A stretch of DNA of 64,000 bases, taken from the NCBI GenBank assembly GCA_964106915.2, contig OZ066926.1; one strand, 5' to 3'. Numbering within the stretch: the stretch's first letter is position 1; every line of letters starts with the position of its first letter. Positions 1 through 60,826 of the stretch are shown in pieces. Origin of the DNA: Podarcis gaigeae. Taxonomy: Eukaryota. A program made the position numbers and the translations under genes. The notes beneath the pieces are model-generated. The model was not told where the DNA came from. It was given only the letters and a program-made list of their open reading frames with translations, and searched no databases.

Positions 1-3000
1 GCGAGGGAGGCGCCTGCAGGGGCTCTGTATCTTGTGCCGCCCGAGGCAGCTGCTTCTCCCCACCTGGGCCTGTGATCCCAGGAGAAACTCATGCAGTTCT
101 GAGAAGCTTTCCTAGTTAACTATTAGAGAATCAGGGAGAACATGTGGTTGGCATCAAATAAACCTTTCTTCATGTGTTGGTAACGGTCGTCTTGTTGAAA
201 GGAGAATGTTTACAGAAAGAATTTCCAGGCATAGCACTGACTTGTGAAGAATCTGAGAATGCTGAACAAATGCAACTATAGAGCATTAAGCTTCCTGTCT
301 TGTTTGGGCTAAAATCTGGGAAATATATATTCTTAACTGAATTTATTAAATGTATAGGGAGGGGGAGGTCAAAGGAAGTACTCTCTTATTGTTTTCTGTC
401 TTTTTGTTTGTGTGTAGATTATGGAGTACAACTACTGTCTTGAATTCCAGGAATTGCATCACAGGTTGTTTATTTCACTGTTAAAATACGAAAACCTTAA
501 ATCGCTCGTTTAACTTTTAGTCACTTTATAGCAAACCTTAAATCACTTGAAACAACTGAGTGCTGTGTTTCGTTCTAAACTTTCTATGAGATAAAAGATG
601 GCTATAGTGAGAGTTAAAGTGAGATGTTAAAAAGTGTGTGTTTGGGGGGAAGGTTTTCTGAAATTGGTTCATATTGCTTTTTTTTTTGTATAATTGTTGG
701 TTAAGAGCGTTAACCATTACTATCTTTCAGTGAAAAGTTTGAACTCATTCATGTGTTAGCAATCCCAAAATTTGTTACCCCAAAATGGAAATGGATAGTG
801 AAAAAGTACATAAAAAGGTGAACAGAAATAAGGTGGAATGTAAATATTCACATGTATTGTGAAAAGGTATGCAAATCGTTACTCAATTGTTCTACAACTA
901 TTTGTATCACAGCTGTCCTGTACTTGTTGCAAAGTGTGTTCTAGGTCTTATAAGCCAACATGGCACCCCCTGCCCCAGATGTTGCTAGGCTGCATCTCCT
1001 GCGTCTCTGATATTGTCCATGCCGGCTGGGGGGTGATGGGAGCTGTGCCCTCCAGGTGCTGTTGGTGGGGGCTGCCCCTCTCTGAGATTGTCTCATATTC
1101 TAGTTCCAAGCTTCAAAGGAGTAGTGTCTGCCATTTTGTAGCACAAAGTCATCATGCACTCACAAGTCAGTCACCCCCTTGAACTGGCAGACTTGGGAAT
1201 ACTGAGGTCTGCAGAAAGTGCTTTGGGGGGGGGGGGCGGGGAGGTTGGGAAGCAGGAGGTGGGAGCTTGAGTGCCGCAAAGTGAATGGGGAATAGTTCCT
1301 TTTGAGAATTTTTTCTTGTAGTAAGCTAATAACGACAGCAACAACAAATGTGAATGTTTGTTCCTTAAGCAGGGTTACCTTTTCATTTCCTAGGAGAAGA
1401 AGTGTAAGAGCTCAGGAGACATATTTTGAAATGTGTGTTTCCACTTTCTCCCTGACTCTGCCTCGCTACAGTTCCCCCTTGTGACCTTAGATGTGCACAA
1501 CCTGAGACCTGAACATCTACTTGTGTGGGGTTTATATACTGGTGGATATGTGCTGTGAGTGGCTTTTGAGTTGCATCATACTCTATGTTCTGATGTTTCA
1601 GTGTGGGTGGAATAGTAGGGGATGATGAGGCAGATCATTTTTATTTGTTTTCCTCTTACATTATGCTCAATAGGAGGGAAATTGCTTCCACCATCCCAGA
1701 CCTGATGGGTGTGTCCATGGAATGAAGAAGTTTAGGATTTGGCATAGCCAAGCCACACCCCAAACTCATGTGCTCCTCCTCCTGCTGTAATTTTACCAGT
1801 GGTGGAGTTTTCTGCTGGTGTTTCAGGTGAGTTTCACTGGCCTTGGTGTCATCCTGGTGGCATAATGCCATTTCTGCTTGTGGAGTGGGGCTGAATACAT
1901 GGTAGCTGAAATGTCAAAGGAGTTTGCAAAAGAGTGTGTTAAGTTTTGAACTGTGTGGTTTCTATACGCAAAGCTGCACTTCAGCCTGGGAGATTTCTGC
2001 AATGCAATCTTGGCCACACCGTTCATGGGAGATCATGGGAAATCTGGAGCGGGAGAAGCTTTTATTACAAATTCAAGAAAATACACCCACTCTCAGTTTC
2101 AGATTGTCCATTATGTTGGGGAAACATTTCAGACTTAGTGCAAGTAATGTTTCTTTTTGTATCATGTAAAAACTGTGAAATGACCTTGATTCCCATGCCA
2201 CATTCTGACATTTCACGCCAGTTCATGAAAATACCCCCCTAAATACCAATGTTCTTATCTATATGAACAAAACTTACTTTTTGTCTTCAGAAAAACCTTC
2301 ATAATTTTGATTACTTTTACCCACACATTTCACAGCTTGGTATGGCAGCATTAATCCTATAACACTGCCTTTTCCATCACATTAATAAAGAACAATAAGT
2401 TTCCTGAACAATTTTTAAAATGACTTATTTGCGTATTTACACACTTGTGAGTTTAGATTCCGGTCTGAACTGATAAGGCTGAACATGTTGCATTAGCACC
2501 AAAGGGGTCTTTTTTGGTTCAGCAGCTGTGGATATATTTGTCCAGGTGTGACAGAATTCTTTAGAAGTTGGACGTACTCAGCGAAGCAATTAAAAGGTGG
2601 GTGGGTGTGAAATCAAGGATAAAGAGCTCTCATGCCTAATTGAGATGATCAACCAAATACTGGTGTGTTCTTTCCTTTCGTCCTTAATGGAAGGTCAGCT
2701 TCAAAGATGTGGGCACCGAGAAAATGTTAAGAGTGTGGAATCTACTAATTTAAAACTTTTCAGCAGTTGGAAAATGGTAATCAAATACAACAAAGCATTG
2801 TCACTGTGAAGTCCATAATAGTTTCTGTGACGGGGGTGGGGTATCATAAGTTGTAATGGCAGGAATGAATCTTGCTTTGCTTTCAAATTATATCTGTTTC
2901 TAATTCTCAGGTTGGCACATCCCTGGAGGATATGCAGCCACCCTGATTCAGATAGAATTGGAAACCATACTTTGTGGAGGTATCCAGACAGGGGCAGTGC

Positions 3001-9443: not shown

Positions 9444-9503
9444 TTCTCCACTGTGGGGCAAATGGTATAATAATGCTTGTTTAGCTGCATGTAATGTTAA
9501 CTC

Positions 9504-9847
9504 TTGAGAGTCCCATGGACTGCAAGAAGAACAAACCGATCTATTCTTAAGGAAATCAGCCCTGAGTGCTCACTGGAAGGACAGATCCTGCAGCTGAGGC
9601 TCCAATACTTTGGCCACCTCATGAGAAGAGACGACTCCCTGGAAAAGACCCTGATGTTGGGAAAGATGGAGGGCACAAGGAGAAGGGGATGACAGAGGAT
9701 GAGATGGTTGGACAGTGTCTTCGAAGCTACAAACATGAGTCTGACCAAATTGCAGGAGGCAGTGGAAGACAGAAGTGGCTGGCGTGCTCTGGTCCAGGGG
9801 GTCACAAAGAGTCGGATACAACTAAACGACTAAACAACAACAACAAC
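9504..9847 (+). mobile_element. RTE-BovB LINE 3' fragment
   Basis: LRVPWTARR...LQYFGHLMRR..SLEKTLMLGK motif, (CAA)n tail, 11-bp TSD aatgttaactc (9493-9503 / 9848-9858). Confidence 0.95.
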
Positions 9848-10720
9848 AATGTTAACTCAGTGACTGCTTCTTCACTCTAAAGAGGCAATTTCTATGGTAA
9901 AGCTGGAAGGAAGGAAGAGCACTTAGAACTACAGATCTAAATATAAATAAAGATCTAAAAGTGTTTGAGATCCATGCTCTTTTTGAGGCAGAGGAGAAAT
10001 GGTGGGGAAGTTACAAATTGCCACCTCCCAAGGTTGCTTTAGAACTGAGAAGTGACTAATCTGTTAATGTTCAACACAAAGCAGAGTTCCGCTTGCACCT
10101 TCTTCTTTCCAAAGACATGTGCTATCCATGTGAGGGAGGATATATTGTCTTTGGCAGAAGATTTTAGAATGGCAGGTCTGCAGCTTTATTACAGTAGGCA
10201 ATGGACATTATCCTCCTTTTTAGAGTCACTTTCACTTTGGCAAAACAGCCATGTGTTTTTATTCTGTCTGAATACGCAGTACAGTGGTACCTTGGTTCTC
10301 AAATGCCTTGGTACTCAAACAACTTGGAATCCAAACACTGCAAACCTGGAAGTAAGTGTTCCGGTTTGCAAACTTTTTTTGGAAGCCGAATGTGCTCTAT
10401 TTTTAGTGTTACACTTCCGTTTTGAGTGTTACTCTGAGGTTTATCTGTTCTTGCTATTTTTTTGCATTTTTGTTTTGCGGCTTTTTTTGTGACTCTGTGG
10501 AACCCAGTTTAGCTACTGATTGATTGATTGATTGATTGATGGTGTGACTGCAGGACATTGTTTATTGCTTTCATTTTATGGATCAATGGTTTCGTTAGCT
10601 AGTAAAATTCATGTTGAATTGCTGTTTTAGGGGTTGCTTTTAAAAGTCCAGAATGGATTAATCCATTTTGCATTACTTTCTATGGGAAAGTGCACCTTGG
10701 TTTTGGAACGCTTTGGTTTT

Positions 10721-12678
10721 TTTTTCTTCAAGTAATGTTTATTGAGATTTTCCAGATGATGACAAAAACAAAAAGAAAAAATTAAAAAGAAAAAAACAAA
10801 TATCCAACAAAGAAAAACAAAAACACATAATGTTTAAAGAGCCTTATCTTCTTTCACCTTATTTCTCAGACCTCCCCCCCTCCCCTTCTTGCATTCCAAT
10901 TTATATTATCTGCTCAACAAGTTCTTATCATATTTCTCAACCTTAACTTAATAATTTCATTATTTAATACTATTTATTTTCTTCTTTCTTCCATTTCTCA
11001 ATTAATTTGAGAGCCTTATTTCTAATTAAAAGACCCCATTTTAACTTGATCTTAAACCTTTTTCCTAAAATCGACCCAAATTTCCCTTCCACAATTTCCC
11101 CACATTCCATAAAAATCACAAAAGTTATAAAAAGAAAAAAGAACTTAACAAAACTATATTTTAAGACCCTTTGGATTCCCAAGTCCCACCCTCCCTTTCC
11201 CGGTATGATCCCCAAACCAATGTCCATCAGTCCATCATTTCTCAGCCTGGATCTCAGATTTCCGAGGCTCTTAATGCTCTTTCCATTTCACTCTGCCGAA
11301 TTTTCTTCACCATCCTTTGTATTCAACACCAAATCTCAAGGAAGATCTGTTCCAGTAATGACCATTTTTCTTCCAGACAGGCCTCTAAGTTTAAAAGTGG
11401 AGCTCAAATTTTGTTCCTTAAATTTTTTAAATCTGTATGTCCCAAAAGCTCGAACTTCCATCTTGATCTCACTTGAACTAACAGGCCTCTGATCTGCCTT
11501 GATCTTCCACAACATTATGGCTTCACCTTCATTTTCCACCAAATTTTCCACCAAATCCTCATGTATCTCTTTTTCCACTTTTTCCACTTTCTCAAGTTTG
11601 TCGAATTTCTTTTGCCCAGCTGCAGCCACTTCTGTTCCAACTTCAAGGGCTTTTGGTTCCACGACAAAGACTTGTGTCAAGTCTCTTACTTTTCCAGCAA
11701 ATTTATTTACTGCTTCTTTCAATGTTGTCGCCCTTGTAGTCAAAATATTACCTTGATCCTGGATCTCTCCCTGTAGTTCCTGGAGCTCTCCCAGGAGATA
11801 AAATGTCCTGTTCAGCTCAATCAGTATTTTTCCACTTACAGCCATTTCTTGCAGTGTTCCACAACTCCCCTCTAGGGGGATTTTATTTACTTAGTATCTT
11901 TCCAGTTCCAATCCAAAAGTCCAATGTAGCTTATTTTTCTTTATTTCCAACAATTTGTATCCAAATTACAGAAAATCTAACCGGCAGTATCACCAGAAAC
12001 AACGGTTCCTTTTATTCCCCAGCTTTGACAGCTAATTTGACAGCTGTCAAAGTCTGTATCTTTTAAACAGGCTCTTTCACAGATCACTCCCGGGTCCCGT
12101 GGGGCTGCACTTTAACTTTCGAAACCAACTCTTATCCTCCAGCAAAATTAATTATAATGTCCAATCATGAAATTAATAAGTTTTCTCCACAAGGGACAAA
12201 GATGTTTCTCTCAACTTTAGTTCTCAAGTCCTTGCTTTAGGTTGTTTGCAAGGCGGGGGGGGGGGGGGACATCCTTTTTACCCCTTCCCCGGTCGTACCG
12301 AATTCCAAGACAAAGATACCTTTTTAAGTCCAATTTCCTTATTACTCACGGGTTGTTGCTTTTAGTCCGAATGATCAAGGGAAAAAGTCAGCGCTCTCCG
12401 TCCATGGCATGCGGCTTCACTCAGCAGGGTGAGCAGAGGACTCTCAGCACCGCGCCGCTCCCCGCTCCCCGTTCCGTAGCCTTTAAAAAGGCTCCTTCAC
12501 AGGTCGGGGGGGGCGTTAATGGTGCCCACCGAGTCACCACGTCCACAGGCATCCGCGCCTGTGGTTTTTAAGGGTCCCCGCGTCGCCGGTGCGGCAGGAC
12601 CCGAACCCTGTTGAGCCGATTCCCTCCGGAGCTCGGAGGGAATCCGCCATTAAGCGATGGCGCTAACCCGGAAGTCCC
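10721..12678 (-). mobile_element. Full-length non-autonomous poly(A) retroelement (HAL1/L1-like), copy 1
   Basis: 17-bp TSD tggaacgctttggtttt (10704-10720 / 12679-12695); GC-rich 5' end GGGACTTCCGGGTTAGCGCCAT; AATAAA (10738-10743) and A tail; no RT motifs; homologous to 30332-32044. Confidence 0.88.
11336..11845 (-). pseudogene. Coiled-coil-like ORF (169 aa) inside the retroelement, probably disrupted at its 3' end
   Basis: E/K/L-rich heptad-like sequence; blocks NRTFYLLG, ILT....TLKE and MEV..FGT.RF recur in frameshifted form in copy 2. Confidence 0.55.
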
Positions 12679-14364
12679 TGGAACGCTTTGGTTTTGGAAC
12701 GGACTTCTGGAACAGATTAAGTTTGAGAACCAAGGTACCACTGTAGCCCAGATGGACTCAGGCTTGAGGAGACTGAGGATTTGATTAAACCTGGTGAAGT
12801 GTAAAACAGCACAGGTGGCTTTTTGCTGGCAGGGTGTTGCAGAGGGATTAATCTATGAAAGTGTTTGCTATGGTTACCAGGTGAGAAGAAGAGTTTTGCT
12901 TAGAGGAAACACCAAGCCTTCATTACAGAGAACTTTTGACACAACAAGCTATCTTGTGCTAGCCATTTTCCCACCACCCAGCCCTCCTTGCCTGCTTGTA
13001 AGAGAAGTCTGAGACCCACAGCTTGTAAATCAAGGCCAAAAGAGCAAGATGCACTGCATCCTTCCTTTGAGAAAAAAACTATGAGCTGTTTCAAATCTCT
13101 GTGCTGGAAAGTGCCTTGGCAGTCAGGGTTTCCAGTGTGTTTATCCAAGGCATACACCCAGAAAAGCACCTGTGCTGTAAGTCATACATTATATGACATG
13201 TGAATCAAAGGCACGTTCCTTCGGTGCTGCATTTCGGAAGGAGGAAACTGACTGGGGTTTGGGTGGGTGGCTGAGGCAAACATAAGTGCAACCGTGGAGC
13301 AGGGAGGGCTCTAAATTCAGTGTTTGGCACCCAGGCGGACTGTCTTTCTCCCAAGCAAACAGAAAGGGAAGAGATAGTATCAGAAAAACCAGTATTGCTG
13401 ACAAAAGAGAAAGATCAGCATTGCTGACATGTGAATCCCATACACTGCCACCTTTGGCGTAATTCACCGCATAATCATCAAACACGCCTTTTTTGGAAAG
13501 CAAAATCGTCATTAAAAATGTGACAATTATGCGGTGAATTATGGTACATCCTACAACATTGGCCATTGGCCAAATAGGCAGGCAAGCTGTGATCCACTTC
13601 CTAGGCCTAGGTGAAGCTGAAAAGGGTTCACCCAGGCCCAGGAAAAACCCCTTGCCTCCAGCACAACTGCTGGATCCAGGAGAGGCATTGTCACCGTCCC
13701 ATAACAGTGCCCAATCTGGCTGTAAGCATCATTACACAACAGATGAAGCATGTACACATGGTTTTTCAATTTTTCTTCTCTTCTTTCTTTAGGCTTCCAC
13801 CACCATTTTTATTCTTTGCCCCTCAATTGCACCTGAGGTTACTACGCCCCCCTGGATGACCCCCCCCCCAGGAATGGGAAACACTGATCTAGTGTAAGCT
13901 GTGTGCAAGCTCAGGATTTCTTCACTTATAATTATTTATCCCCTTATGTAATGATTATGTGCATTTCAGGACAAAGTTAGTTAATTTGTAAATGCTCATA
14001 GCGTGAAGTACTTAGGGGTTGGCCATGACGTTAACAAGTCTGTAGTCCTATCTTTAGACATAAAAATGGAAGGCTGTCTTCTTCTAGCCCCCATTTCAGG
14101 ATTATTGTGCCCCATCACAGTACTGTATTTGCATGAACCTGGGCCGGGAAGGGCACCAGAAGTGAAGAGAAGTTGCAGAATAGTAATGGGCATGGCATAG
14201 GAGTGAGAAGGGAAGGGACACTTATAGGGAAGAACGCTGCCTTGAGTCCCATCAGGGGAAAAGGCAAGGTATAAAGAAATACATAACAACAATAAGTGGT
14301 GGCATGAGAATGAGGTTGAAGATGAAAGCAGGGGCCTGAAAGGGTCTGAAGAATTGGAGGGGGT

Positions 14365-20171: not shown

Positions 20172-23100
20172 ATCATTATTGTACCAGGAGGTTTTCTTAT
20201 TTTTGGAACTGAATTTTTATATCCTATTGCATGAGCTGCTTTGAGTAAGTTTTACTTGTAAGATGACCTATATATATATATTTTATAATAAATAAATGTG
20301 CAACAGGGCGTTCATTTTCAGTCCTGCAGCTATTCTACATTGAGGGATGGATTTCAACGTTGTAAGGTACTCAGTTTGCAATAACTTGGACATTGTCACT
20401 ATTCATGATTGTTGTGGTAAATAAGCAAGCTCTTCTGTAAAGATCAGTTGTCAACAGAGGAGTGATTACTCAGTTTTCTGTATTTCTGGCCACTGAGCTT
20501 TTCCCTGCCCCTTTTCACTCATATCACTGTGTGTCTCTGCAATAGTTTTAAGCCCCGGCATTATACTTTTTTGGGTAAATATTTTGAGATCTGCTTAATC
20601 TATCTGCTCTGGGTTTCTGCAATCCCATTAAAATAATTGGTAAAAAGAAGAACCGAAAGAATAAATGGTTGCAAATTAAAATCTTTTTGTGTGTCTCTTT
20701 TGAGTTTTCCTAAGTTGTTCAGTGGAAATTCATAATGGGATAAAAGATCAAAGGATGCTAATCAAGCCCTTTATCGCACCGCCAAATGGCCTTTAATGTG
20801 GGAACAATCCAGTGTGTCTCTTGGGGCAAGGGTAGCTTGCATTTCTATATAGATGAACACATTGTTTGTGGACTTGGTTCCAGCTTTCTGTTCTCTTGGG
20901 TGCTGCTGGGAAGCAAAGCCCCCCCCCTCACCCCAGTGCGCTGAGAATTCAGTGTTTTAAATGCTGGTATACTTCGTTCCGATGTTCTCTTGTACATGGC
21001 ATCCCTTGTCAAAAGAGTGAGGAAACCACAATAAATAATAGTTAAAACAGATAAGAAATGGTTTTTCTTGTTTTTAAAAAAGGGAACACTGGCAGCAAGA
21101 ATATTACAATGAAGATGCAGGTGGCTGCTTTTCAAAAAGTCGGTGTCTGGACCCAGCCCTCCGGCTATGTTATAGCCAAGTTAATGAGGAGCTGTTGGAG
21201 CCTCCCCAACTGTAACTAAAAGTAAACACAAGGCAGGTGAGCTTATTGTACTTGCTTTTGCTTTGTGCCTGAGGGGAGAGGGATCAAAGGGAAATGAAAG
21301 GGATCAGAACCGTGCAGGTTAATGCATTGCTTGAAGGCCCCATATGGTGGGATTGCTGGCTAGCAAAGCCCTGTAAAATGAGTAGCTGTACTGTTGGAGC
21401 CTAATATTCATGGCCCCTTGAGCCTTTTAACCCGAGAGGAGTGGGGTGAGGCCACTGAGAACTCTCTCATGCTGCCTCTGACTTTGGACAGTGGTCAGCA
21501 GCCTTTGGCCCACAGGCCTAATTGGACCATCCCATTTGCCCTGCCAGGCCGCTTTGGCAAAGTTCTGCTAACGTGCGCTACTCCTGACATCATACCTGCT
21601 TGTAAAGAGCTGTGTGCAGTGCTGCAACAAAGTGCTGCACAAACTGCAGGGTTTAATTTCAAAATGTGCAAGTGAGAAGAGGTCATTGCATGCCATTGTA
21701 ACTTATGGCAATTGACGGGTGCACAGACAGGTGAGCCTCTCCGGGGGCAGCATTCCATAAACTGGGAACCGCTGCAGAAAAGGGTTGCCACCCTTCAGAG
21801 GCATGCCAAGAAGGGCCTCGGATGATGGCCACAGGTCCAGGTTCGTTCATCGGGGGAAATGCAGCCCTTGACAACTTGGGACCAGTTTACTTGTGGGATC
21901 GTCTTGCACCGTCTACTACTTTGATCTGCAAAACTGCCACTGTTACTAGTGCAACATAATACTTGCTCTGCATGTGTAAGAAATAAATCTTTTACTGTGG
22001 CGGCATCTACGCTTTGGAACTCACTGCCTGTAGACACCAGGCAGGCGCCTTCGCTGTACTCTTTCCAAGTTCCTGCTTAAAACAGTTTTGTTTCAGGCAA
22101 TCTTTTTCTAATCTGCCATTGTTTTAATCACCTACTGAATATTTTAAAATACCTGTTTTTAGTTGTTTTTAATTTTAATGTTTTATTTTATAAACTGCTT
22201 AGTGGTTTTATTACAATCAAGCGGTATATGAATTTTGTTAACTAAATAAATTGTTGTGCTGGTGCTCTAAGCACAATTTACAGTGGTTGAAATGTTTTCT
22301 AGAATCCACTTTTCCCCCATCACAGTTTCTGAGCAAGCATGCAAGGTTAAAAAAAAAAGAGGATAGTAGTTTTGTGTCCCACATGGATAGAACTCTTCGG
22401 ATTCAGAGGTTTTTCTTAGTCGTCGCTTTCTCTTTTAATAAAATGTCTACTGAATTATTAATTTGAAAAGGCTATAGCCTTTTCAAATTAATAATTAGAT
22501 ATGGTGAATACTTTTCATCTCTGTAGGAGAATAGTTAAAACTTGTAAACAATTTGAGCTGAGTCCATTATAAGTTATTATTGCTTACTTTTTAGATTAAC
22601 ATTTCCAGTTTTTGCTTTTGAAACGCCATAGAAAAGTTGCAGTAGGGGTCCATATCACAACAATAGCACATAATGCAAAACATGTGTTTCCATTCAGTGT
22701 CCAGATTTTGCCCTTTGTAAACAAAATGGCCAGGAGACAAAGCTGTCTATACCTAGGGCATGTTCTAAGCCCATGCTAAGTGACCTGTGAACTGAAGGTT
22801 AGCTTTGTGCCTGCCACCGTTAATGACAGAGGGAGACATATTCACGGTCTAAATTCTTGGTGCGGGATTACTGGGACATCAAGCTTTTGATGTTACGCTT
22901 AGAGCAAGAATTTTATATTTCATTGTCTGTGAATGTTAGATGGTGACAAACTGGTTTATACTCAGAATTGTTCTACCAGGAACAAAAATACATTAGAATT
23001 CTTCCCCACTTTCATCCATGTAAACATGAAGGCTGCAATGTTTTGCACAAAATTTGGAAGTTAAGTAGAAACTTCTTGGGTTTTAATTCCTAGCAGTGTG

Positions 23101-28290: not shown

Positions 28291-30331
28291 GGAATGCTTG
28301 CCTCAGAAAGGATCTCCTGATGCTGACAGTGGAATAAAGAGGCAATCCTTCTTTATTTTACCTTTAGTAAAATCCCCTAAAGCAATGCCTCTTTATTCTC
28401 GCTGGCATTTTAATAATTAAGGTTTAGTCCTTTGAGCTATCTTTGATGGGGAGCATGCCTGGACTGTTTTGTGGGCCTGTCTCTATTTGAGATGTGCCAG
28501 ACCTTTCCATCTTGTGCTGTGCTTCCACTGCAGCCATTTTTAAACTGGTGCCCTGTGCCCACAGCATTTCTACAAAGTTCTAAGTGTGCCCCCCATTAGC
28601 TGAGAGAGGTTGGCTAACAGCAATCACTTCACACTAATCTGCACTGCCATGTCTTGCCAAATTGCAGATTGCAGATCAGAAATAGAAGCAAAATGCATGG
28701 CATACAGCTGATGTGTAGCATCCCCTCCGGGATTGGCTGCCAGTCTGCAGCTTTGCAGTGCTGACAATTCCTACTTAAAACATGGCTTGCTAGATACTGC
28801 TCCTCATCCCTAGTACAGAAACTCATCTTACACTGCATTCACTTCTACAATCACAGGGTACATATAATAAAAGAGGCATTGTCTGTCTGTAAGGCTCACT
28901 CACATTTCTTTGAAGGTAATAATCCCCTTGCAAGTGACTGAATAAAGAAATTGGAGTTCACAGTTGGGGTATTGATCAGGTCCACGCCTGCATAACTTCA
29001 ACCATGCTGCAACCTAAGGCAAACTTGTATTCTCCTTTGAATAGTGCTGGAAGAACATTTGGTATTATCAATAAAGAGTCAGCAAATTCTTGTGCTCTCA
29101 GAGTTCTTTGCTGCTGTAAACCATTTCAATGAAACAATATTTTGAGACCTTCTTTAAAAGCATGCCTTCAACCAAACCATTATTTGCTCACCTTCCAGAG
29201 ATCAATAATACCCCTACAGTGGCTCATTGTCTAAAAACAGCTGGCTGTTTAGCCTTTATTTTGTTTTTGAAGTATTTTCCTTTAAAGTGAAATTCATCAG
29301 TCAAAAAAGGTTGCAAGAAAGGTGTACTGGGACTAAAATGACTTAAAATCCCTTAAAGCCTTCAGGGCTGGGAGTAAATCGGTTTCTGTTGTAGGTCATG
29401 CTTTGGGGGCAATACAAGACAAGAATGTTCATTTCTGTATTTATGTGATAACCTACCGGTACCAGTAGTCCTCATATTAACAGGTGTTGAGCTATAAAGC
29501 TGGTGCCAATGGGCTACCTTTATTTTTACATAGGTCAGCATCCTACATCTGTCTCCTTTGAAGGTCAAGGTGGCCTTTGCAAACAATGCTGGCTGTACCT
29601 TTAGTATCCAACCCTAACTGTTGGGATAGAGGTTAAAAAGAGGAAAATTAACCACAAGCCCCCAAATTTGGGATCCTCTCCAAACCTGTGCCCAACTGTT
29701 GCAGTTTTTTTTGCAGCGAAAACCCCACGTTTTTTCAGCACCGCAGTTAATGGGGCCGTTAAAAAGTCGTGCTGTGAAATTTTAAATAGCATCTTATGTT
29801 TTGTGTTTTGTGTTGTAGCGGTTAGAGTGTTGTTTTGGATGTGTGAGTTCCGATACCCTTAGAACTAAGAGAAAGAGTTGCTTCAGAACTGCGGCTACAT
29901 AAGTATTTGCATTGGTAAACACATGAAAGGGGAGACTAAGACGTCTGAGACATAAAAATACTCACAAATGACAACACTTCTGAAATTTCTCATTTTAGGA
30001 CACCTCCCCTACTTAACAGTGAACTTTAGTTATTTCAGCTGGAGGATTTATATCAGGAGGATGTGACTGTACAAGTTGCCGGATGAGAGGCAGGCCCTCC
30101 CCCACTTCTTTGTGGGAGGGTTGTTCATTTTAGTGATGAAGTGGCATGTCCTCTCAGATGTCTCAACCGCTGTTAGGATCAATTGCTAAGGATCAGGGAA
30201 GTCCTTGATAGCACAGGTGAGACAGGTAGAAGCACGTTCTGCAGTCTTGCCCACTCAGCCTTACTTTTAAGCTGATAGGATTCCTAATGATCACGAAAGA
30301 AATGTTAAGACTGTCCAGGCATTTCCTTTAA

Positions 30332-32044
30332 TTTTTTTAAAAAATAATATTTATTAAAGATTTTCAAATATAACAAAAAAAGAAAAACATCCAAATTTAA
30401 AACCTTATTTTCATTGGCATCTTTCCAGGACTTCCCCTCCCCTCCCCCTCTTATATTCCAATTCTTTCAAATAAATTCAACAAATTCTTACCCCCAATTT
30501 TAAACTTATTATCATTGACCCAATTTAAAAATATTTTCCCATCCCCTAAAATCGACCTGTTCCCTTCCACGAGTTCCCCTCTTTAATATGCAATACAGAT
30601 TAGAATAAAAAAATTAAGAAAAAGAATAAGATATAATTTAACACCCTTTGGATTCCAAATTTCCCTCCCCCCTTTCCCGGTTGCGTTCCCAATGTCCATC
30701 AATGTCTACTGTCGTCCTGGAGCTCCCACACTTAAGCCATAGTCCTTCACCAGTCCGCTTTGCCGTCTTTTTAATAGTCTTTGCCGTCTTTTGGTCCTTT
30801 TTAGTTTCGAATGTCCAATCTTGGAAGGAGTCTGTCTCAAAAAGGTCCATTTTTTCCATCCAGATCTTTGTATTTAAGAATAAAAACTCCAATTTTATTT
30901 CTTTAGACCTTTCAAATCTGGATGTCCCAAATGTTCCCACTTCCAACTTTATCCAGTTCTTGTTGTTCTTGTTGTTCTTGTTGATCTCTCTCCTCCTTTT
31001 TTCCCCCTGCTCTCCTGCACAAATGTTCTAATTCCAAAAGCTTCTAATTCCTCTGCAGAGGCTTTGTTATTCAGGAACAAAACATTACGTCAAGTCCCTT
31101 CCATTCTTCAATAGATAAATCTATTGTCTCCTTTAGTGTATAGACCTCTGTAGACAAAATAGTGTTCCATTTCTGCAGTTTCCCAGGAGATAAAAAGTCC
31201 TATTTCAAATTCCATGCCAACAATACTTGTAGTGTCTCACAGCTCCTCTAGAGGGATTATAGTAACTCAGTTTCCTTCCAGATCACACCCAACAGTCAAA
31301 ATAACTTGTTATTCCTTGTTTTAAACAATTTATATCCAATTTGTAACAAATGTAACCGGCAAAGTCCTTGTAACAAAGTTCTCTTTTTATTCTTCCGCTT
31401 TGACAGCTCCTTTGACAGCTGTCAAAACCTCTATTTCTCATCTCCCGGCGCTCTCACGGATCGCTCCCGGGGTTCGGGGGGGTTGCATTTTAATTCACAT
31501 TCCACTTTTCTCCTCCAGCCCAGTCTTATAATTTTCCATCGCGAAATTAATAACTTTCTCAAAATAAGGTTACACTCGATCTTAGTTGTCAAATCCTTTG
31601 CTTTAACCCCTCTACAACAGGGGGGAGGCTGACTTCCTTTTTGCACCTCCCCCACTCGCTCCGAATTTTTAACAAAAAATTTTTTCTCCTTTTTAATTCA
31701 AGTTCCAATTACTCACGGGTTATTATTTTAAGGCCAAATTTTCAATGGAAGAAGTCAGCGCTGTCCGTTGAATGGCATGCGGCTTCGCTCGGCAGGGGAA
31801 GCGGAGGACTCATAGCACCACCACCCCCCCGTCACCCGCTCCGCAGCCTTTAAAAAGGCTCCTTCGCAGGTCGGTGGGGCGCAAAAGGTGCCCGCCAATT
31901 CACCATGCCCATGGGTTTCAGCACCCATGGTTTTTGAGGGTCCCCGCGTCGCCGGCGCGGTAGGACCCAGCCCCTGCCGAGCAGGCTCCCTCCAGAGCTC
32001 GGAGGGAGTCCGCCATTCGGTGATGGCGCCAACCCGGGAGTCTT
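30332..32044 (-). mobile_element. Full-length non-autonomous poly(A) retroelement (HAL1/L1-like), copy 2
   Basis: 21-bp TSD ctgtccaggcatttcctttaa (30311-30331 / 32045-32065); 5' leader homologous to copy 1; AATAAA (30350-30355) and short A tail; no RT. Confidence 0.88.
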
Positions 32045-32836
32045 CTGTCCAGGCATTTCCTTTAAAACCAGAAACTTGTCTTATGGTATCTCTCTCTTTT
32101 ATTACCTCTTAGCAGCATGACACGTCTATAATACTTCTCTAGCAGGGCCTTTGCTTTGTTTGCATGTCCATGAATTGTATTTCAGCATTTCTGTTGCAGC
32201 TGCATCAGAACACACACGGCTGAAAGTGCAAAAGCTCTGCCTTTGCCAAACTTGCTCCTTCATATAGCTCTCTCACCTTGTTTGTGCCATACCAAATGCA
32301 CAGCACCCTTCTCGTCACTATTTTTAAACTAATCCCCTCCCACCTTATTGTTGCTACTCTTGACTTTTTTATTCTTTTGTAAAGGTGTTCCAGGTAAATT
32401 TGGACAACTTTTCATTAATCAGTAACACTTTCAAAAGTGTTCCAGTTTTCACCACTAAATCCCTAATTGTGAAGAATCTTTTACAGAATAAAATGCTTCA
32501 AAGGGGACAGGGGAGCACAGGTAAAAAGAAAATATTGGAATGTCTCTGCTGCTTTCAGGAATTCTCATCTTGTCCCTCCTACAACAGCCCAGAAAACCTT
32601 TTACTTGTTTGGATAGCTGTTACCGTAGTCCCTGGGCGCTGAGCTCAGTCTCTTGAGGACTGTTTGCTATTTTGCTACTGCTGCCTCTATTATTATTTAT
32701 TAAATGAATCTGTTGCCTAACACCACAATTAAAACGTGGCATATAGCCCTGCAAAGGCCAGTTTTTAAAAATACATTAATCAACACTGACAACAAACCTC
32801 CAATTTAAACCGAAGGTAAAATATAAACTAAACCCC

Positions 32837-52300: not shown

Positions 52301-53124
52301 CCAAACCTACAATTTTAGGATTCTATGACTTTATGCTCACAAGCAAATGCAGGTTCTCTACCACGAAATGGGTAAAATGGCCCTTCTGCATTTCTTTAGT
52401 CCCAGGACGGTTTTAATTGAGAATATTGACTGGCACAAACCAGAGTGGTTCTCGTTCTATAACATGTTTTCAGTTATTTTTGCATTACGTCTTTGAATGA
52501 GAATGTTTTCCCTACCTGGATAGTTGATATTTCTGTTAAAGCCATCCCAACAATTCCATAATATTAACATTGCTTCATTTCAGTTTTATAAATACTGTAT
52601 ATGGAGGGGGGAGCAAACTACCATAATATGAGCACTATCATGTTTGAACATGATCTGGGTAAGGGAAGCTTGTCACTTCCTGTGAAAATTCTAGCAATTT
52701 GCGGGTAATGAATTACCATTCTCATGGTTTGGCAGCTTGATAACAAAATCAGTCATTCAAAAATGTAGAAGGGTCTTCTTTCCTAGCCCTGCAGTATATT
52801 TGAAAAAAAAATGATATAACATTTCTAGGAATGAGGTCAGCAACTGATCACAGTAGTCAGAGGAATATGTTCAGGACTAGTTCTGTGATCTATGTAATTA
52901 TTTGTACTCATAAGACAGTATTGATTCTGAAACTTTTGTTGGTTCTAAAATAGAACATACCTTTTTTATTACCCATTGTCTTCTTGTTTTACTATGAGTC
53001 AACTGCTACATTAATTTACCACATTTTTCTGTTGTGCTAAAAGGTGGTTAAATCTGCACAAATGTTAATAGCATAATATGAGGCAAATATATTTCACTTA
53101 GTTTGCTTTCTCTCTTTTTTACAG

Positions 53125-54445
53125 AGCAATTATACCGGCCTTATTTTTTACCATGAAGGATGGCCATTGTGCATCCATGAGAAGATCATAGTGCAACTGG
53201 CATCCCTCCACAAAGCCCGTTTAAAACCAGGAGATTTTTACTTCCAGATTGTGCCGGTGAGAAAGCAGTCAGTCAACCTAGTGTTAAAATGTCTCTCCAG
53301 ACATGGGCAAGGAATGGAAGAGCTTGTTGTACCTGAAACCATGTACGGATATATTTTCACAATAGAGTTTTTGGAAAATGTAAACGGTAAACTGAATGGC
53401 TGTCCTTTGCAAAGCTGCTTGCTGACTACAGGCCCAGCCATATATAGGACACCTTGGAAAAATATTGTGAACCCTATATTTGTCCCTACAGCTGAAACAA
53501 TTCTGCAGACATATTCCAAAAGCTCTCTGCTTGAGAAATTGATCAGCAGCAGTCCTGATGCTAAAGCTATGACACAGACAATGGAAAGCAGCAGCTCACA
53601 TGAGAGTTCGACCTCTAATGATACCTGTTCTACCGTGATAGAGGTACCGCTTGCAGGCAACTGTGGAAACCAAGGTGATAATGATTCTGATTTATGTCAT
53701 GGCCCTGGGAGCAAGGCTGAAATACAAACCCCAGCACCCCAAGCTGAGCATGGAACTGTTGATGAAGCAAATCCAAGAGCACTTTCGGTTGCAGAGCAAG
53801 CCATCGAGGAACCAAAAATGACATCTGAATTGACACCTGATTTCTTTAAAGATTCAGCAACTCCTCCACTAGTGAAAAGGAATGGCCCCAAAAGCATATC
53901 CTTCAGCACAGACCTGAGCAGCCCATGTCAAAGAGGGCGGGATTCTCTGTATTTTGAAACAAAGCGATTGTTTAGAAAGTCTTATATAGAAGCTTTGCAA
54001 AACCCAATGAGTCTTGGTTCCAGCTCTGAGGAATCCATTGCAGAAGATGAACCGTCAGAGCATGTCATTGGACAGGTGGAGAATGAGTGCAGGGTCACTG
54101 AAAAAACATGTGAAAACAATGTTTGGCAAGAAAGCTGTTGGTCTGAAAGAATTTCAAAACAGGAGGAAACAAGACAGACAGTTAGATTTGGGAATCGTTC
54201 CCAGGCCTCTGAAAAATGGACTGTATCTCATGAAACAACATGTAGCAGGTCAGGTTCAAGAAGGTCACGGTCTTTAGACAGGACACATAAAAGCTCACAG
54301 AGTGAAGATTATAAATCCAGGGTGCCCTCAGATGCAGTGTTCAGTGAAAATCCCCCCAAAATCATAAATGGGCATTCTCCAAGGTCTGAGAGACTGGAGT
54401 CACATATTCATGAATTCATTGCTACAAAAAGCAAAGAGGATGAAG
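53125..54445 (+). CDS. PLEKHG4B: PLEKHG4B-like large exon (SNYTGLIFYHEGWPLCIHEKIIVQLASLH...SKEDE)
   Basis: Acceptor ctctctttttttacag| and donor GAAG|GTAAAA, 1321 nt, phase 0-1. HEGWPLC, PGDFY and LFRKSYIEALQNPM motifs; the remainder is a Ser-rich disordered linker. Confidence 0.93.
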
Positions 54446-54897
54446 GTAAAACAGATGCAAAGTAGATACCTCACTTATTCTTATTTAGTCAGCCTGTTTA
54501 AACCATGCTAACCGGTGTTCCTTTAGTTATTTTATTTTATTTTAGTTGGGAAGCATAGGTGCTATTTATGTTTATTTGTAGGGTGGCGGGGGGGTTGTTT
54601 TCTGCTGATATCCTGCTATATTCTGAGAGTTCAAAGATAAGTTTGTGGCTTTGAATGATGTAAATAGATCTATAACATTAAGCATACCAACAGCAGAACA
54701 AACAGAGCTAGGAAATGGAATGGCAGAGCTAGGAAATGGAAACAGCAACTACAGAGCTATCTCTCCTGTGATAGCAATTCTGATAACTCAAGGTTTAAAG
54801 TCACCATAGGCACAGTCTAAAGTGTTGGGAAATCAGTGGGATTTTACTTGCCCTGAACCAGTGCATGTGATTTAGGACCACTTACCACATGACATAT

Positions 54898-57593: not shown

Positions 57594-59170
57594 GTAATAA
57601 TTTTTTATTTATACCCCGCCCTCCCCAGCCAAGGCCAGGCTCAGAGCGGCTTACAAGCAATAATAAAAACAAGATGAATGATTACAACTTAAAAACAAAA
57701 ATAAAACACAACATTAAAATAATGGAACATTAAAATATTAAAATGTAGCCTCATCGCAGGAGGAGAAGGAAAAGAAAGGAAAAAAAGAGAGAGAGAGGGA
57801 GGGAGGGAATCAAATTGGCTCTAAGCCAAAGGCCAGGCGGAACAACTCTGTCTTACAGGCCCTGCGGAAAGAAATCAGATCCTGCAGGGCCCTGGTCTCA
57901 TGAGGCAGAGCGTTCCACCAGACCGGAGCCAGAGTTGAAAAGGCCCTGGCTCTGGTTGAAGCCAATCTAACTTCCTTAGGGCCCGGGACCACTAGGGTGT
58001 TGCTATTCATGGACCTTGAGGCTCTCCGTGGGGCATACCAGGAGAGGCGGTCCCGTAGGTACGAGGGTCCTAGGCCATGAAGGGCTTTAAAGGTCAAAAG
58101 CAGCACCTTAAATCTGACCCTGTACTCCACCGGGAGCCAGTGCAGCTTGAAAAGCACTGGGTGAATATGCTCCCATGGCAGAGACCCCTTGAGGAGCCTC
58201 GCTGCAGCATTCTGTACCCGCTGGAGTTTCTGGGACAGCTTCAAGGGCAGCCCCGCGTAGAGCGAATTACAGTAGTCAAGCCTGGAGATGACCGTCGCAT
58301 GGATCACTGTGGCCAAGTCAGGGCGGGAAAGGTAAGGGACCAACTGCTTGATGCGGCGAAGGTGGAAAAATGTCGCCTTGGCTGTTGCTGTAACTTGCGC
58401 CTCCATGGAAAGGGAGGCGTCAAGGATTACACCCAAACTCTTAACGGAAGGCAATGGCACTAATTGGGCCCCCGCAAGAGAAGGGAGTTGGTCCCTCATC
58501 CCCATGCCATCCCGACCTAGCCATAGGACCTCTGTCTTCGAAGGATTTAGTTTCAATCGGCTCCCACGAAACCATCCAGCCACAGCTTCCAAGCATCTGC
58601 TCAGTGTGTTCGGGGCCGAGTCAGTGTGGCCATCCATCAGCAGATAGAGCTGAGTGTCATCAGCATGTTGGTGACAGCCCAGCCCAAAGCTCCGGATAAT
58701 CTGGGCAAGGGGGCGCATAAAGATGTTAAAAAGCATTGGGGAGAGAATTGCGCCCTGCGGCACTCCACACACCAAGGAGTGGCGCGACGACATTTCCCTC
58801 CCTAGTGCCACCCCTGTCCCCGACCAGAGATAAAAGAGCACAACCAGTTACGGGCTATGCCCTGTATCCCCACGTCTGCAAGGCGGTGGTCCAGAAGATC
58901 ATGATCGACCATGTCAAAGGCTGCTGACAAATCTAAAAGGATCAGCAGTCCTGACCCGCCTCGATCCAGTTGTCTACGGAGATCATCTGTTAGGGCAACC
59001 AGAGCCGTCTCTGTCCCAAAACCAGGACGGAAACCGGACTGAAATGGATCTAATGCCGATGTTTCCTCCAGAAACCTACCAAGCTGTTCAGCAACCGCTC
59101 TCTCAATTACCTTACCCAGGTATGGAAGATTTGAAACTGGGCGGTAATTGGATAGGTCTAAGGGATCTAA
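57525..59170 (-). mobile_element. 5'-truncated L2-clade LINE with nearly intact RT
   Basis: NYRPVSNL, FQSGFR, LLDLSAAFD, GVPQGAILSP.LFNIF, HADD and SRLDYCNSL motifs; one frameshift at ~58820; stop at 57810; long (TTA)n tail at 57525-57600. Confidence 0.95.
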
Positions 59171-60457: not shown

Positions 60458-60826
60458 TTGTTGTTGTTGTTTAGTCGTTTAGTCGTGTCCGACTCTTCGT
60501 GACCCCCTGGACCAGAGCACGCCAGGCACTCCTGTCTTCCACTGCCTCCCGCAATTTTGTCAGACTCATGTTCGTAGCTTCGAGAACACTGTCCAACCAT
60601 CTCGTCCTCTGTCGTCCCCTTCTCCTTGTGCCCTCCATCTTTCGCAACATCAGGGTCTTTTCCAGGGAGTCTTCTCTTCTCATGAGGTGGCCAAAGTATT
60701 GGAGCCTCAGCTTCAGGACCTGTCCTTCCAGTGAGCACTCAGGGCTGATTTCCTTCAGAATGGATATGTTTGATCTTCTTGCAGTCCATGGGACTCTCAA
60801 GAGTCTCCTCCAGCACACATAATTCA
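60458..60826 (-). mobile_element. RTE-BovB LINE 3' fragment
   Basis: CWRRLLRVPWTARRSN...VTKSRTRLND and (CAA)n tail; close relative of 9504-9847. Confidence 0.95.

Follow-up and report, generated by a model that had tools for sequence, protein, structure and literature searches.

The 5' leader of an L1 retrotransposon family in Podarcis gaigeae features helices that covary—a conclusion held with high confidence—and a single closed multibranch domain is the predicted fold of nucleotides (nt) 1–293 of its sense RNA, approximately 290 bases. One and the same leader is common to autonomous 6-kb L1s and to non-autonomous derivatives in the genome. Two copies of it lie in the window, the 64,000-nt stretch of contig OZ066926.1 (assembly GCA_964106915.2) analyzed here (Table 1). 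The structure of the leader is well supported; its function we infer. RNA on the sense strand of the element is favored over DNA with moderate strength.

Copy A is a non-autonomous L1 derivative, and its 5' end is the region that a sequence-only reading of the window had called, correctly, a retroelement 5' leader; that autonomous L1s begin with it too had escaped this reading. Copy B belongs to a non-coding subfamily; the two align over 900 nt at 72.6% identity. The family is abundant: a genome search returned 3413 candidate members, and one 21-mer has 1302 exact matches versus 0 for a control. A second organism carries the family too. Longer regions were fetched at 20 loci to define whole elements. 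Twelve are elements of 1.63–1.99 kb with duplications of 15–21 bp, two are elements of 6.0–6.1 kb with ORF1 and an endonuclease/RT ORF2, two are longer elements with inserts, and four lack a valid duplication; it is this co-occurrence of autonomous L1s and short derivatives that establishes the leader as common to both. The autonomous L1s (L091 and L092; 6033 and 6132 nt, duplications of 19 and 17 bp) bear the hallmarks of the L1 clade, namely ORF1, an ORF2 with APE endonuclease and RT, an A-tail, and a target-site duplication, with Exo_endo_phos at E=4.7e-13 in L091 and RVT_1 at E=1.8e-35 in L092; ORF2 is broken in both. At the DNA level, non-autonomous copies and L1 share the leader and a short 3' tip. 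The terminus is that of lizard clade-1 L1s, a start GACTTCCGG...ATGGCG and a long 5'UTR; the spacer differs from the Anolis consensus GTGN8. In one locus (L101, G000:C23:65160000-65169500), a non-autonomous copy is inserted approximately 315 nt into an L1 leader, between the structured domain and the donor motif described below. In four loci (L158, L163, L191, and L245), the copy ends abruptly after all or part of the 5' leader.

Further features of the window were recorded alongside. A perfect 16-bp palindrome, TTTGACAGCTGTCAAA, lies at 12036–12051, followed by a partial repeat, and occurs also near 31411–31426; its core is present in 88 of 200 loci, nearly all of non-autonomous families, and is missing from most sampled L1s. 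We take it to resemble a TALE-homeodomain dimer site. A perfect AT-rich palindrome of 44 bp occupies 22453–22496. The plus strand carries at 53077–54465 an open frame of 462 codons for which Pfam gave no match; it is probably a large host-gene exon. An RT-bearing LINE fragment (57810–58847, minus strand; RVT_1 E=2e-14) and two fragments of another repeat that are 94% identical to each other (9500–9846 and 60458–60804) are presumably BovB-like.

Table 1. Leader-bearing elements of the window and parts of the predicted leader fold. Shared changes are observed versus expected counts on the tree of 67 representative leaders.
Feature	Position	Strand	Remarks
Copy A, non-autonomous L1 derivative	10721–12678	-	~1.96 kb; AATAAA and A-tail at 3' end
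Target-site duplication of copy A, 5' copy	12679–12695		17 bp
Target-site duplication of copy A, 3' copy	10704–10720		edge runs into A-tail
ORF1-derived short ORF	11336–11845	-	169 aa in copy A, stopped early; ~180–220 aa in sister copies
Splice-donor-like motif, copy A	12343–12352	-	conserved CCC|GTGAGTA, +325..334
Structured domain, copy A	12385–12676	-	nt 1–292; predicted fold -147 kcal/mol, z -4.9
P1a, 5' arm	12660–12668	-	pairs with 12386–12394; 5 versus 0.9, p=0.002
P1a, 3' arm	12386–12394	-	domain-closing arm; P1a = nt 9–17/283–291
P1b, 5' arm	12645–12657	-	conserved ATGGC (YY1-like at DNA level); pairs with 12398–12409
P1b, 3' arm	12398–12409	-	P1b = nt 20–32/268–279; five outer pairs 8 versus 2.0, p=0.0002
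P2 hairpin (earlier stem ii)	12618–12644	-	nt 33–59; 14 versus 3.1
P3, 5' arm	12606–12616	-	pairs with 12419–12429; 12 versus 4.7, p=0.001
P3, 3' arm	12419–12429	-	P3 = nt 61–71/248–258
P4 hairpin (earlier stem iv)	12572–12602	-	nt 75–105; inner P4b weakly covarying, 4 versus 1.3, p=0.03; outer P4a conserved without covariation, 2 versus 1.0, p=0.26
P5 hairpin (earlier stem i)	12543–12564	-	nt 113–134; strongest covariation, 10 versus 0.6
P6a/P6b, 5' arms and conserved 5-nt internal-loop strand	12521–12535	-	pair with 12439–12451; P6a 5 versus 0.6, P6b 3 versus 0.4
P6b/P6a, 3' arms	12439–12451	-	P6 = nt 142–156/226–238
P7/P8 irregular stem (predicted), capped by P9	12452–12519	-	
P9 (earlier stem v)	12478–12493	-	nt 184–199; 4 versus 1.3, p=0.03
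Unpaired junction GAAGCCGC	12411–12418	-	highly conserved
Copy B, non-coding subfamily	30332–32044	-	~1.7 kb; 21-bp duplication at 30311–30331 and 32045–32065
Splice-donor-like motif, copy B	31710–31719	-	
Structured domain, copy B	31750–32042	-	predicted fold -158 kcal/mol, z -6.6

Leader numbering starts at the G of GACTTCC (window position 12676). Individual folding of 32 leaders—30 clusters at 10% and the two window copies—forms P1a, P1b, P2, P5, and P7/8 in every case, P4 and P9 in 31, P3 in 28, P6b in 26, and P6a in 24. The mean folding z-score is -5.1 for the sense strand, -4.2 for the antisense strand, and -0.4 for the next 290 nt; folding of 280 nt gave -3.6 and -4.4 for the two window copies. 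The stem sequences quoted in the sequence-only reading are all present where it had placed them, and its stems are real. Their arrangement is a different one: the predicted domain is wider and is closed into a multibranch structure rather than strung out as a chain of hairpins, with the long-range helices P1, P3, and P6 added. The junction GAAGCCGC is complementary to the P4 loop (12583–12589) as well as to the P6 internal loop (12526–12530). A pseudoknot with either loop is possible on the basis of this complementarity; the sites are almost invariant.

Covariation was assessed on 186 leaders aligned by sequence only, with a mean distance of 0.26 and a maximum of 0.42. Fourteen of 200 oriented loci were left out of this alignment (5 duplicates and 9 truncated or rearranged), and 19 loci with a short-spacing pattern were excluded. 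Alignments of this kind misregister parts of P1b, P2, P4, and P9. In the tree test, the fewest changes are counted per column and per column pair, and the paired columns are compared with matched unpaired ones. On the tree of 67 representative leaders, the paired columns share 67 changes versus 15.9±3.7 expected, and controls with slid partners share 18–26. The 37 representatives fetched later give 46 shared changes versus 12.6±3.2; this set is only partly independent, since the helices had been noted before it was aligned while the exact pair list was written after viewing the alignments, and since some of its families were already known. Sliding the partners by 1–3 columns reduces its count to 7–26, the slides of +1 and +2 remaining slightly above expectation (p 0.004–0.016), probably because of misregistered columns. 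Pair counting finds 93.9% of cells paired and double changes in 30 of 69 pairs, a result reached in 0 of 500 shuffles. When arms are exchanged between copies on disjoint tree paths, the pairing weakens at 10% clustering in 14 of 15 pairs and at 6% in 22 of 33 (8 negative, 3 neutral); in the later set, 12 of 18 pairs are positive and 5 negative (p=0.07). The trend is absent in four mismatched-arm controls. The windows of this swap test for P6a/P6b were one base off; the tree count used the correct pairs. In an all-versus-all G-test with APC and tree-shuffled nulls on the 186 leaders, which is dominated by deep clades, no pair reaches E<0.05 (best E=0.25), and on independent pairs the best value is E=0.08, none being individually significant. 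The alignment bears out the covariation strongly at the level of helices and not at that of single pairs, for which there are too few events per column.

Among the stems proposed earlier, (i) and (ii)—P5 and P2—covary across families (Table 1). Three compensatory pairs had been counted in stem (i), and two of them hold at the family level. The third does not: at this position, which closes the loop, most B-type copies feature C.A, and a CpG C>T change is present in the window copy as well as in L054. Stems (iv) and (v) are borne out weakly, the former in its inner part only. Stem (iii) is not borne out, with 0 shared changes versus 0.3 expected, a covariation score of 0.025 versus 0.024 in shuffled data, and formation in 0 of 32 folds. 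Its register lacks support, the ATGGCG arm pairing approximately 240 nt downstream in the rival helix P1b, which forms in 32 of 32 folds.

Selection on secondary structure, as the sequence-only reading had argued from covariation, is supported by these tree-aware tests, and of the RNA and DNA versions that it allowed the sense RNA is favored. Across 37 well-registered pairs, G.U occupies 273 cells and A.C 70, and the sense-fold energy lies below the antisense one in 31 of 32 leaders. The evidence for sense RNA is only moderate because private, post-insertion changes lean to G.U as well (25 versus 14) and because the antisense strand gives the more stable P7 (49 versus 11). Among 65 private changes at paired sites, only one is a double canonical change, which speaks against stem repair during copying. 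Conservation delimits the same region: the mean identity of 40 random pairs is 0.75 in nt 1–292 and falls to 0.54–0.62 past nt 335, so that the peak stops with the domain and the donor motif. Between the two autonomous L1s, blastn aligns nt 3–293 at 80.6%, part of ORF1 at 65%, and ORF2 at 77.6%.

Behind the domain, at about +327, lies the conserved motif resembling a 5' splice donor. Among the 67 representatives, 59 have CCC|GTGAGT or GTAAGT at +319..336; 194 of 200 loci match the motif with at most 2 mismatches, and in three of six whole elements it is the sole GTRAGT. Three pattern searches for spliced insertions found none: one had 0 matches, another had 4 versus 2 in the control with none element-like, and none of six donor-altered loci is a join at the donor. 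Every one of these searches assumed exact motifs, so the count is a lower bound. By analogy with what has been argued for human L1, the motif could be a transcription-factor site at the DNA level; sections of PMC5860796 describe that mutation of the human L1 5'UTR donor reduces reporter RNA to approximately 18%, an effect ascribed to an overlapping RUNX3 site.

In 24 of the 29 A-type loci, the ORF of the derivatives is open over at least 160 aa; all 52 of 52 B/C-type copies lack it. With 170–240 aa, it is not a full-length ORF1p with intact RNA-binding domains; ORF1p spans 345–365 aa in the L1s. It is linked to L1 ORF1p via intermediates (L003 to L199, E=2e-24; L003 to L197, E=2e-6; L197 to the ORF1 of L092, E=3e-23). 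The ORF in the window does not match L1 ORF1p directly, a Pfam search with the ORF returned nothing above the cut-off, and a protein-database search with the 200-aa ORF scored 0 of 234 candidates. Shortened ORF1 derivatives of 170–240 aa are open in many diverged copies (L003, L015, L070, L081, L159, L197, L199, L206, and L209), most of them ending in a RASD..PG-like tail; such a product could be a coiled-coil partner or an inhibitor of ORF1p. In most L1-type families (L145, L159–L161, L167, L197, L209, L223, and others), TGACCTTG is conserved 10–30 nt before the ORF1 start, which might serve as a branch point or as a half-site for nuclear receptors (ERR/NR5A). The 52 B/C-type copies, without an ORF >55 aa at the usual start, still show 6 shared changes versus 1.5 expected (p=0.003), and these may precede or follow the loss of the ORF. 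Selection thus acted on lineages that kept transposing, including ones whose sampled copies encode no protein. This suggests that the domain serves the RNA in cis during its life cycle, and it speaks against a role confined to translating the element's own ORF—a weakening of one of the functions suggested earlier.

The preferred reading, held at somewhat below an even chance, is that the cis-acting leader domain and the splice-donor-like site let the full-length unspliced RNA survive and enter the L1 ribonucleoprotein. U1 protects RNAs from early polyadenylation, and a coupling between cap and U1 is known. In this model, the leader would fold co-transcriptionally into the closed domain in cells, and P1 would bring the cap within approximately 45 unpaired nt of the donor. 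U1 would bind there without splicing and shield the intronless, AATAAA-rich RNA from early termination. The conserved loops would bind a host protein or ORF1p/ORF2p and scaffold the RNP, and the full-length RNA would thereby be licensed for retrotransposition. Helper-RNP recruitment, put forward in the sequence-only reading, is a possible role. Retention of the leader by non-autonomous copies does not by itself prove such an RNA role since the leader is also the internal promoter. Translation control is rather improbable as the main function, be it IRES-like entry, a shunt past the cap-proximal fold and upstream AUGs to ORF1, or ribosome docking. A fold of approximately -145 kcal/mol beginning 8 nt from the 5' end, 2–9 ATGs upstream of the ORF in copies with the usual ORF start, and a conserved AUG hidden in P1b would all suit it, and docking of the kind known from Alu would serve non-coding copies too. 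Yet non-coding subfamilies still covary, the domain stops 500–690 nt upstream of the ORF start, the uORF that opens with the conserved AUG is itself not conserved (5–68 aa among the 67 representatives), and neither the window nor 6 loci yield an IRES match in Rfam. A role at the end of reverse transcription is unlikely. The 5' RNA of R2 elements helps to complete the 5' junction, and by analogy ORF2p or ORF1p might recognize the domain for this purpose; its location at the extreme 5' end, its being, together with the short 3' tip, the DNA that non-autonomous copies share with L1, and its outliving the loss of coding would fit, whereas the conserved donor is left unexplained. The 5'-completeness of the copies cannot count as support because the searches select for it.

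That the stems stem from DNA- or copying-level processes—template switching, inverted-repeat conversion, or a cruciform promoter—is very unlikely, even though the antisense strand folds well too (z -4.2), private changes show some G.U excess, and no pair is significant by itself. Inverted-repeat conversion, named earlier as the explanation that would undo the claim, fits badly: the covarying helices span 90–280 nt and nest in one fold, and they retain internal loops and G.U (61 of 67 rows at 9:291 and 50 of 67 at 12:288), whereas conversion would perfect the repeats. The scarcity of private double canonical changes given above speaks against such processes as well. A self-cleaving ribozyme defining the 5' end is a far-fetched candidate. 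Ribozymes are known at the 5' ends of other non-LTR clades, and the size, the multibranch fold, and the conserved unpaired GAAGCCGC would suit one; a minimal ribozyme is described in a human L1 5'UTR (parts of PMC11620745). The ribozyme-like fold raised in the sequence-only reading nevertheless finds no signature here. Rfam returned nothing on the leader, either at the gathering score on the window or at E<=5 on 6 loci. An HDV-like descriptor of our own (nested double pseudoknot starting at the 5' end, conserved catalytic C) fits 1 of 67 representatives, and the hammerhead core (CUGANGA and GAAA) occurs in 2 of 67. The twister-sister-like L1 ribozyme is marked by a conserved 6x5 internal loop and cleavage at CA; both of its loop words, deduced from nucleotide numbers in part of PMC11620745, occur in 5 of 67. 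In 39 of 67, the position of the candidate catalytic C ahead of GAA is occupied by U, and this position is paired in P3. The base preceding GACTTCC is G in 93 of 146 copies, as expected for a capped Pol II RNA or a templated G.

The leader RNA domain is apparently undescribed, no description of it having been found in the open-access literature. Closest are the clade-1 L1s of Anolis, whose long 5'UTR likewise starts GACTTCCGG...ATGGCG and is kept, rather than replaced, among the families of the lizard (Boissinot and Sookdeo 2016, PMC5381506, in part). The sections of that paper considered treat this conservation as transcription motifs within the first ~120 bp, discuss RNA folding for the inter-ORF spacer only, and describe no covarying 5' domain or donor. 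In the first ~400 nt of the clade-1 consensus sequences at 13 of 18 places in its supplement, judged by eye and not computed, the 5' end is complementary to a 3' stretch at approximately nt 265–290, for example GGCGATGAG/CTCATCGCC in L1_AC12, and two AC3-type entries pair AGGCAG/CTGCCT versus AGGCTGG/CCAGCCT. A P2-like hairpin with a GCTC-containing loop and then a GTAAG motif are also visible by eye. This matching layout is seen by eye in AC3b, 7, 8, 11, 12, and 14, with the GTAAG motif in 5 of the 6 (parts of the PMC5381506 supplement).

The derivatives resemble HAL1, described for mammals, in having an L1-derived 5'UTR, a single ORF1-derived frame without ORF2, an A-tail, and a target-site duplication (PMC5753468, in part). 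The frame found here is likewise ORF1-derived, with no ORF2; it differs in being shortened to ~170–240 aa and only distantly ORF1p-like, and the B/C subfamilies have lost it. Human L1 also carries a conserved, seldom used 5'UTR donor in an element that must stay unspliced; there, spliced insertions make up ~2% of full-length events and the donor overlaps the RUNX3 site (PMC5860796, in part). Compared with these human SpIREs, the searches here found no spliced insertions, and the donor sits behind a covarying domain. Structured 5' leaders with a multibranch domain of ~300 nt are known from R2 and from retroviruses such as HIV-1, the retroviral ones also featuring long-range pairing and the major donor. 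The likeness is one of layout only, as the present leader has no HDV-like fold, Rfam match, primer-binding site, or LTR.

The L1 machinery is generally taken to require hardly more than a poly(A) tail, and the leader offers a handle on how it chooses non-autonomous elements. The leader also adds a new family of structured RNAs, whose natural compensatory variants can be used directly in mutagenesis. Vertebrate L1 5'UTRs are viewed chiefly as DNA promoters, which in mammals are exchanged to evade repressors, and non-replacement in lizards is left open or ascribed to shared transcription machinery (parts of PMC5381506); a covarying RNA domain is a second, testable reason why lizards keep theirs. 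As a tentative and on balance doubtful generalization, squamate clade-1 L1s may possess an ancient ~290-nt domain, its fold kept as far as Anolis, that together with an unspliced U1 site forms a retrovirus-style leader choosing between translation and template, and that non-autonomous partners keep in order to parasitize L1. If this were true, the squamate 5'UTR would be an RNA machine and not merely the swappable DNA promoter that it is in mammals.
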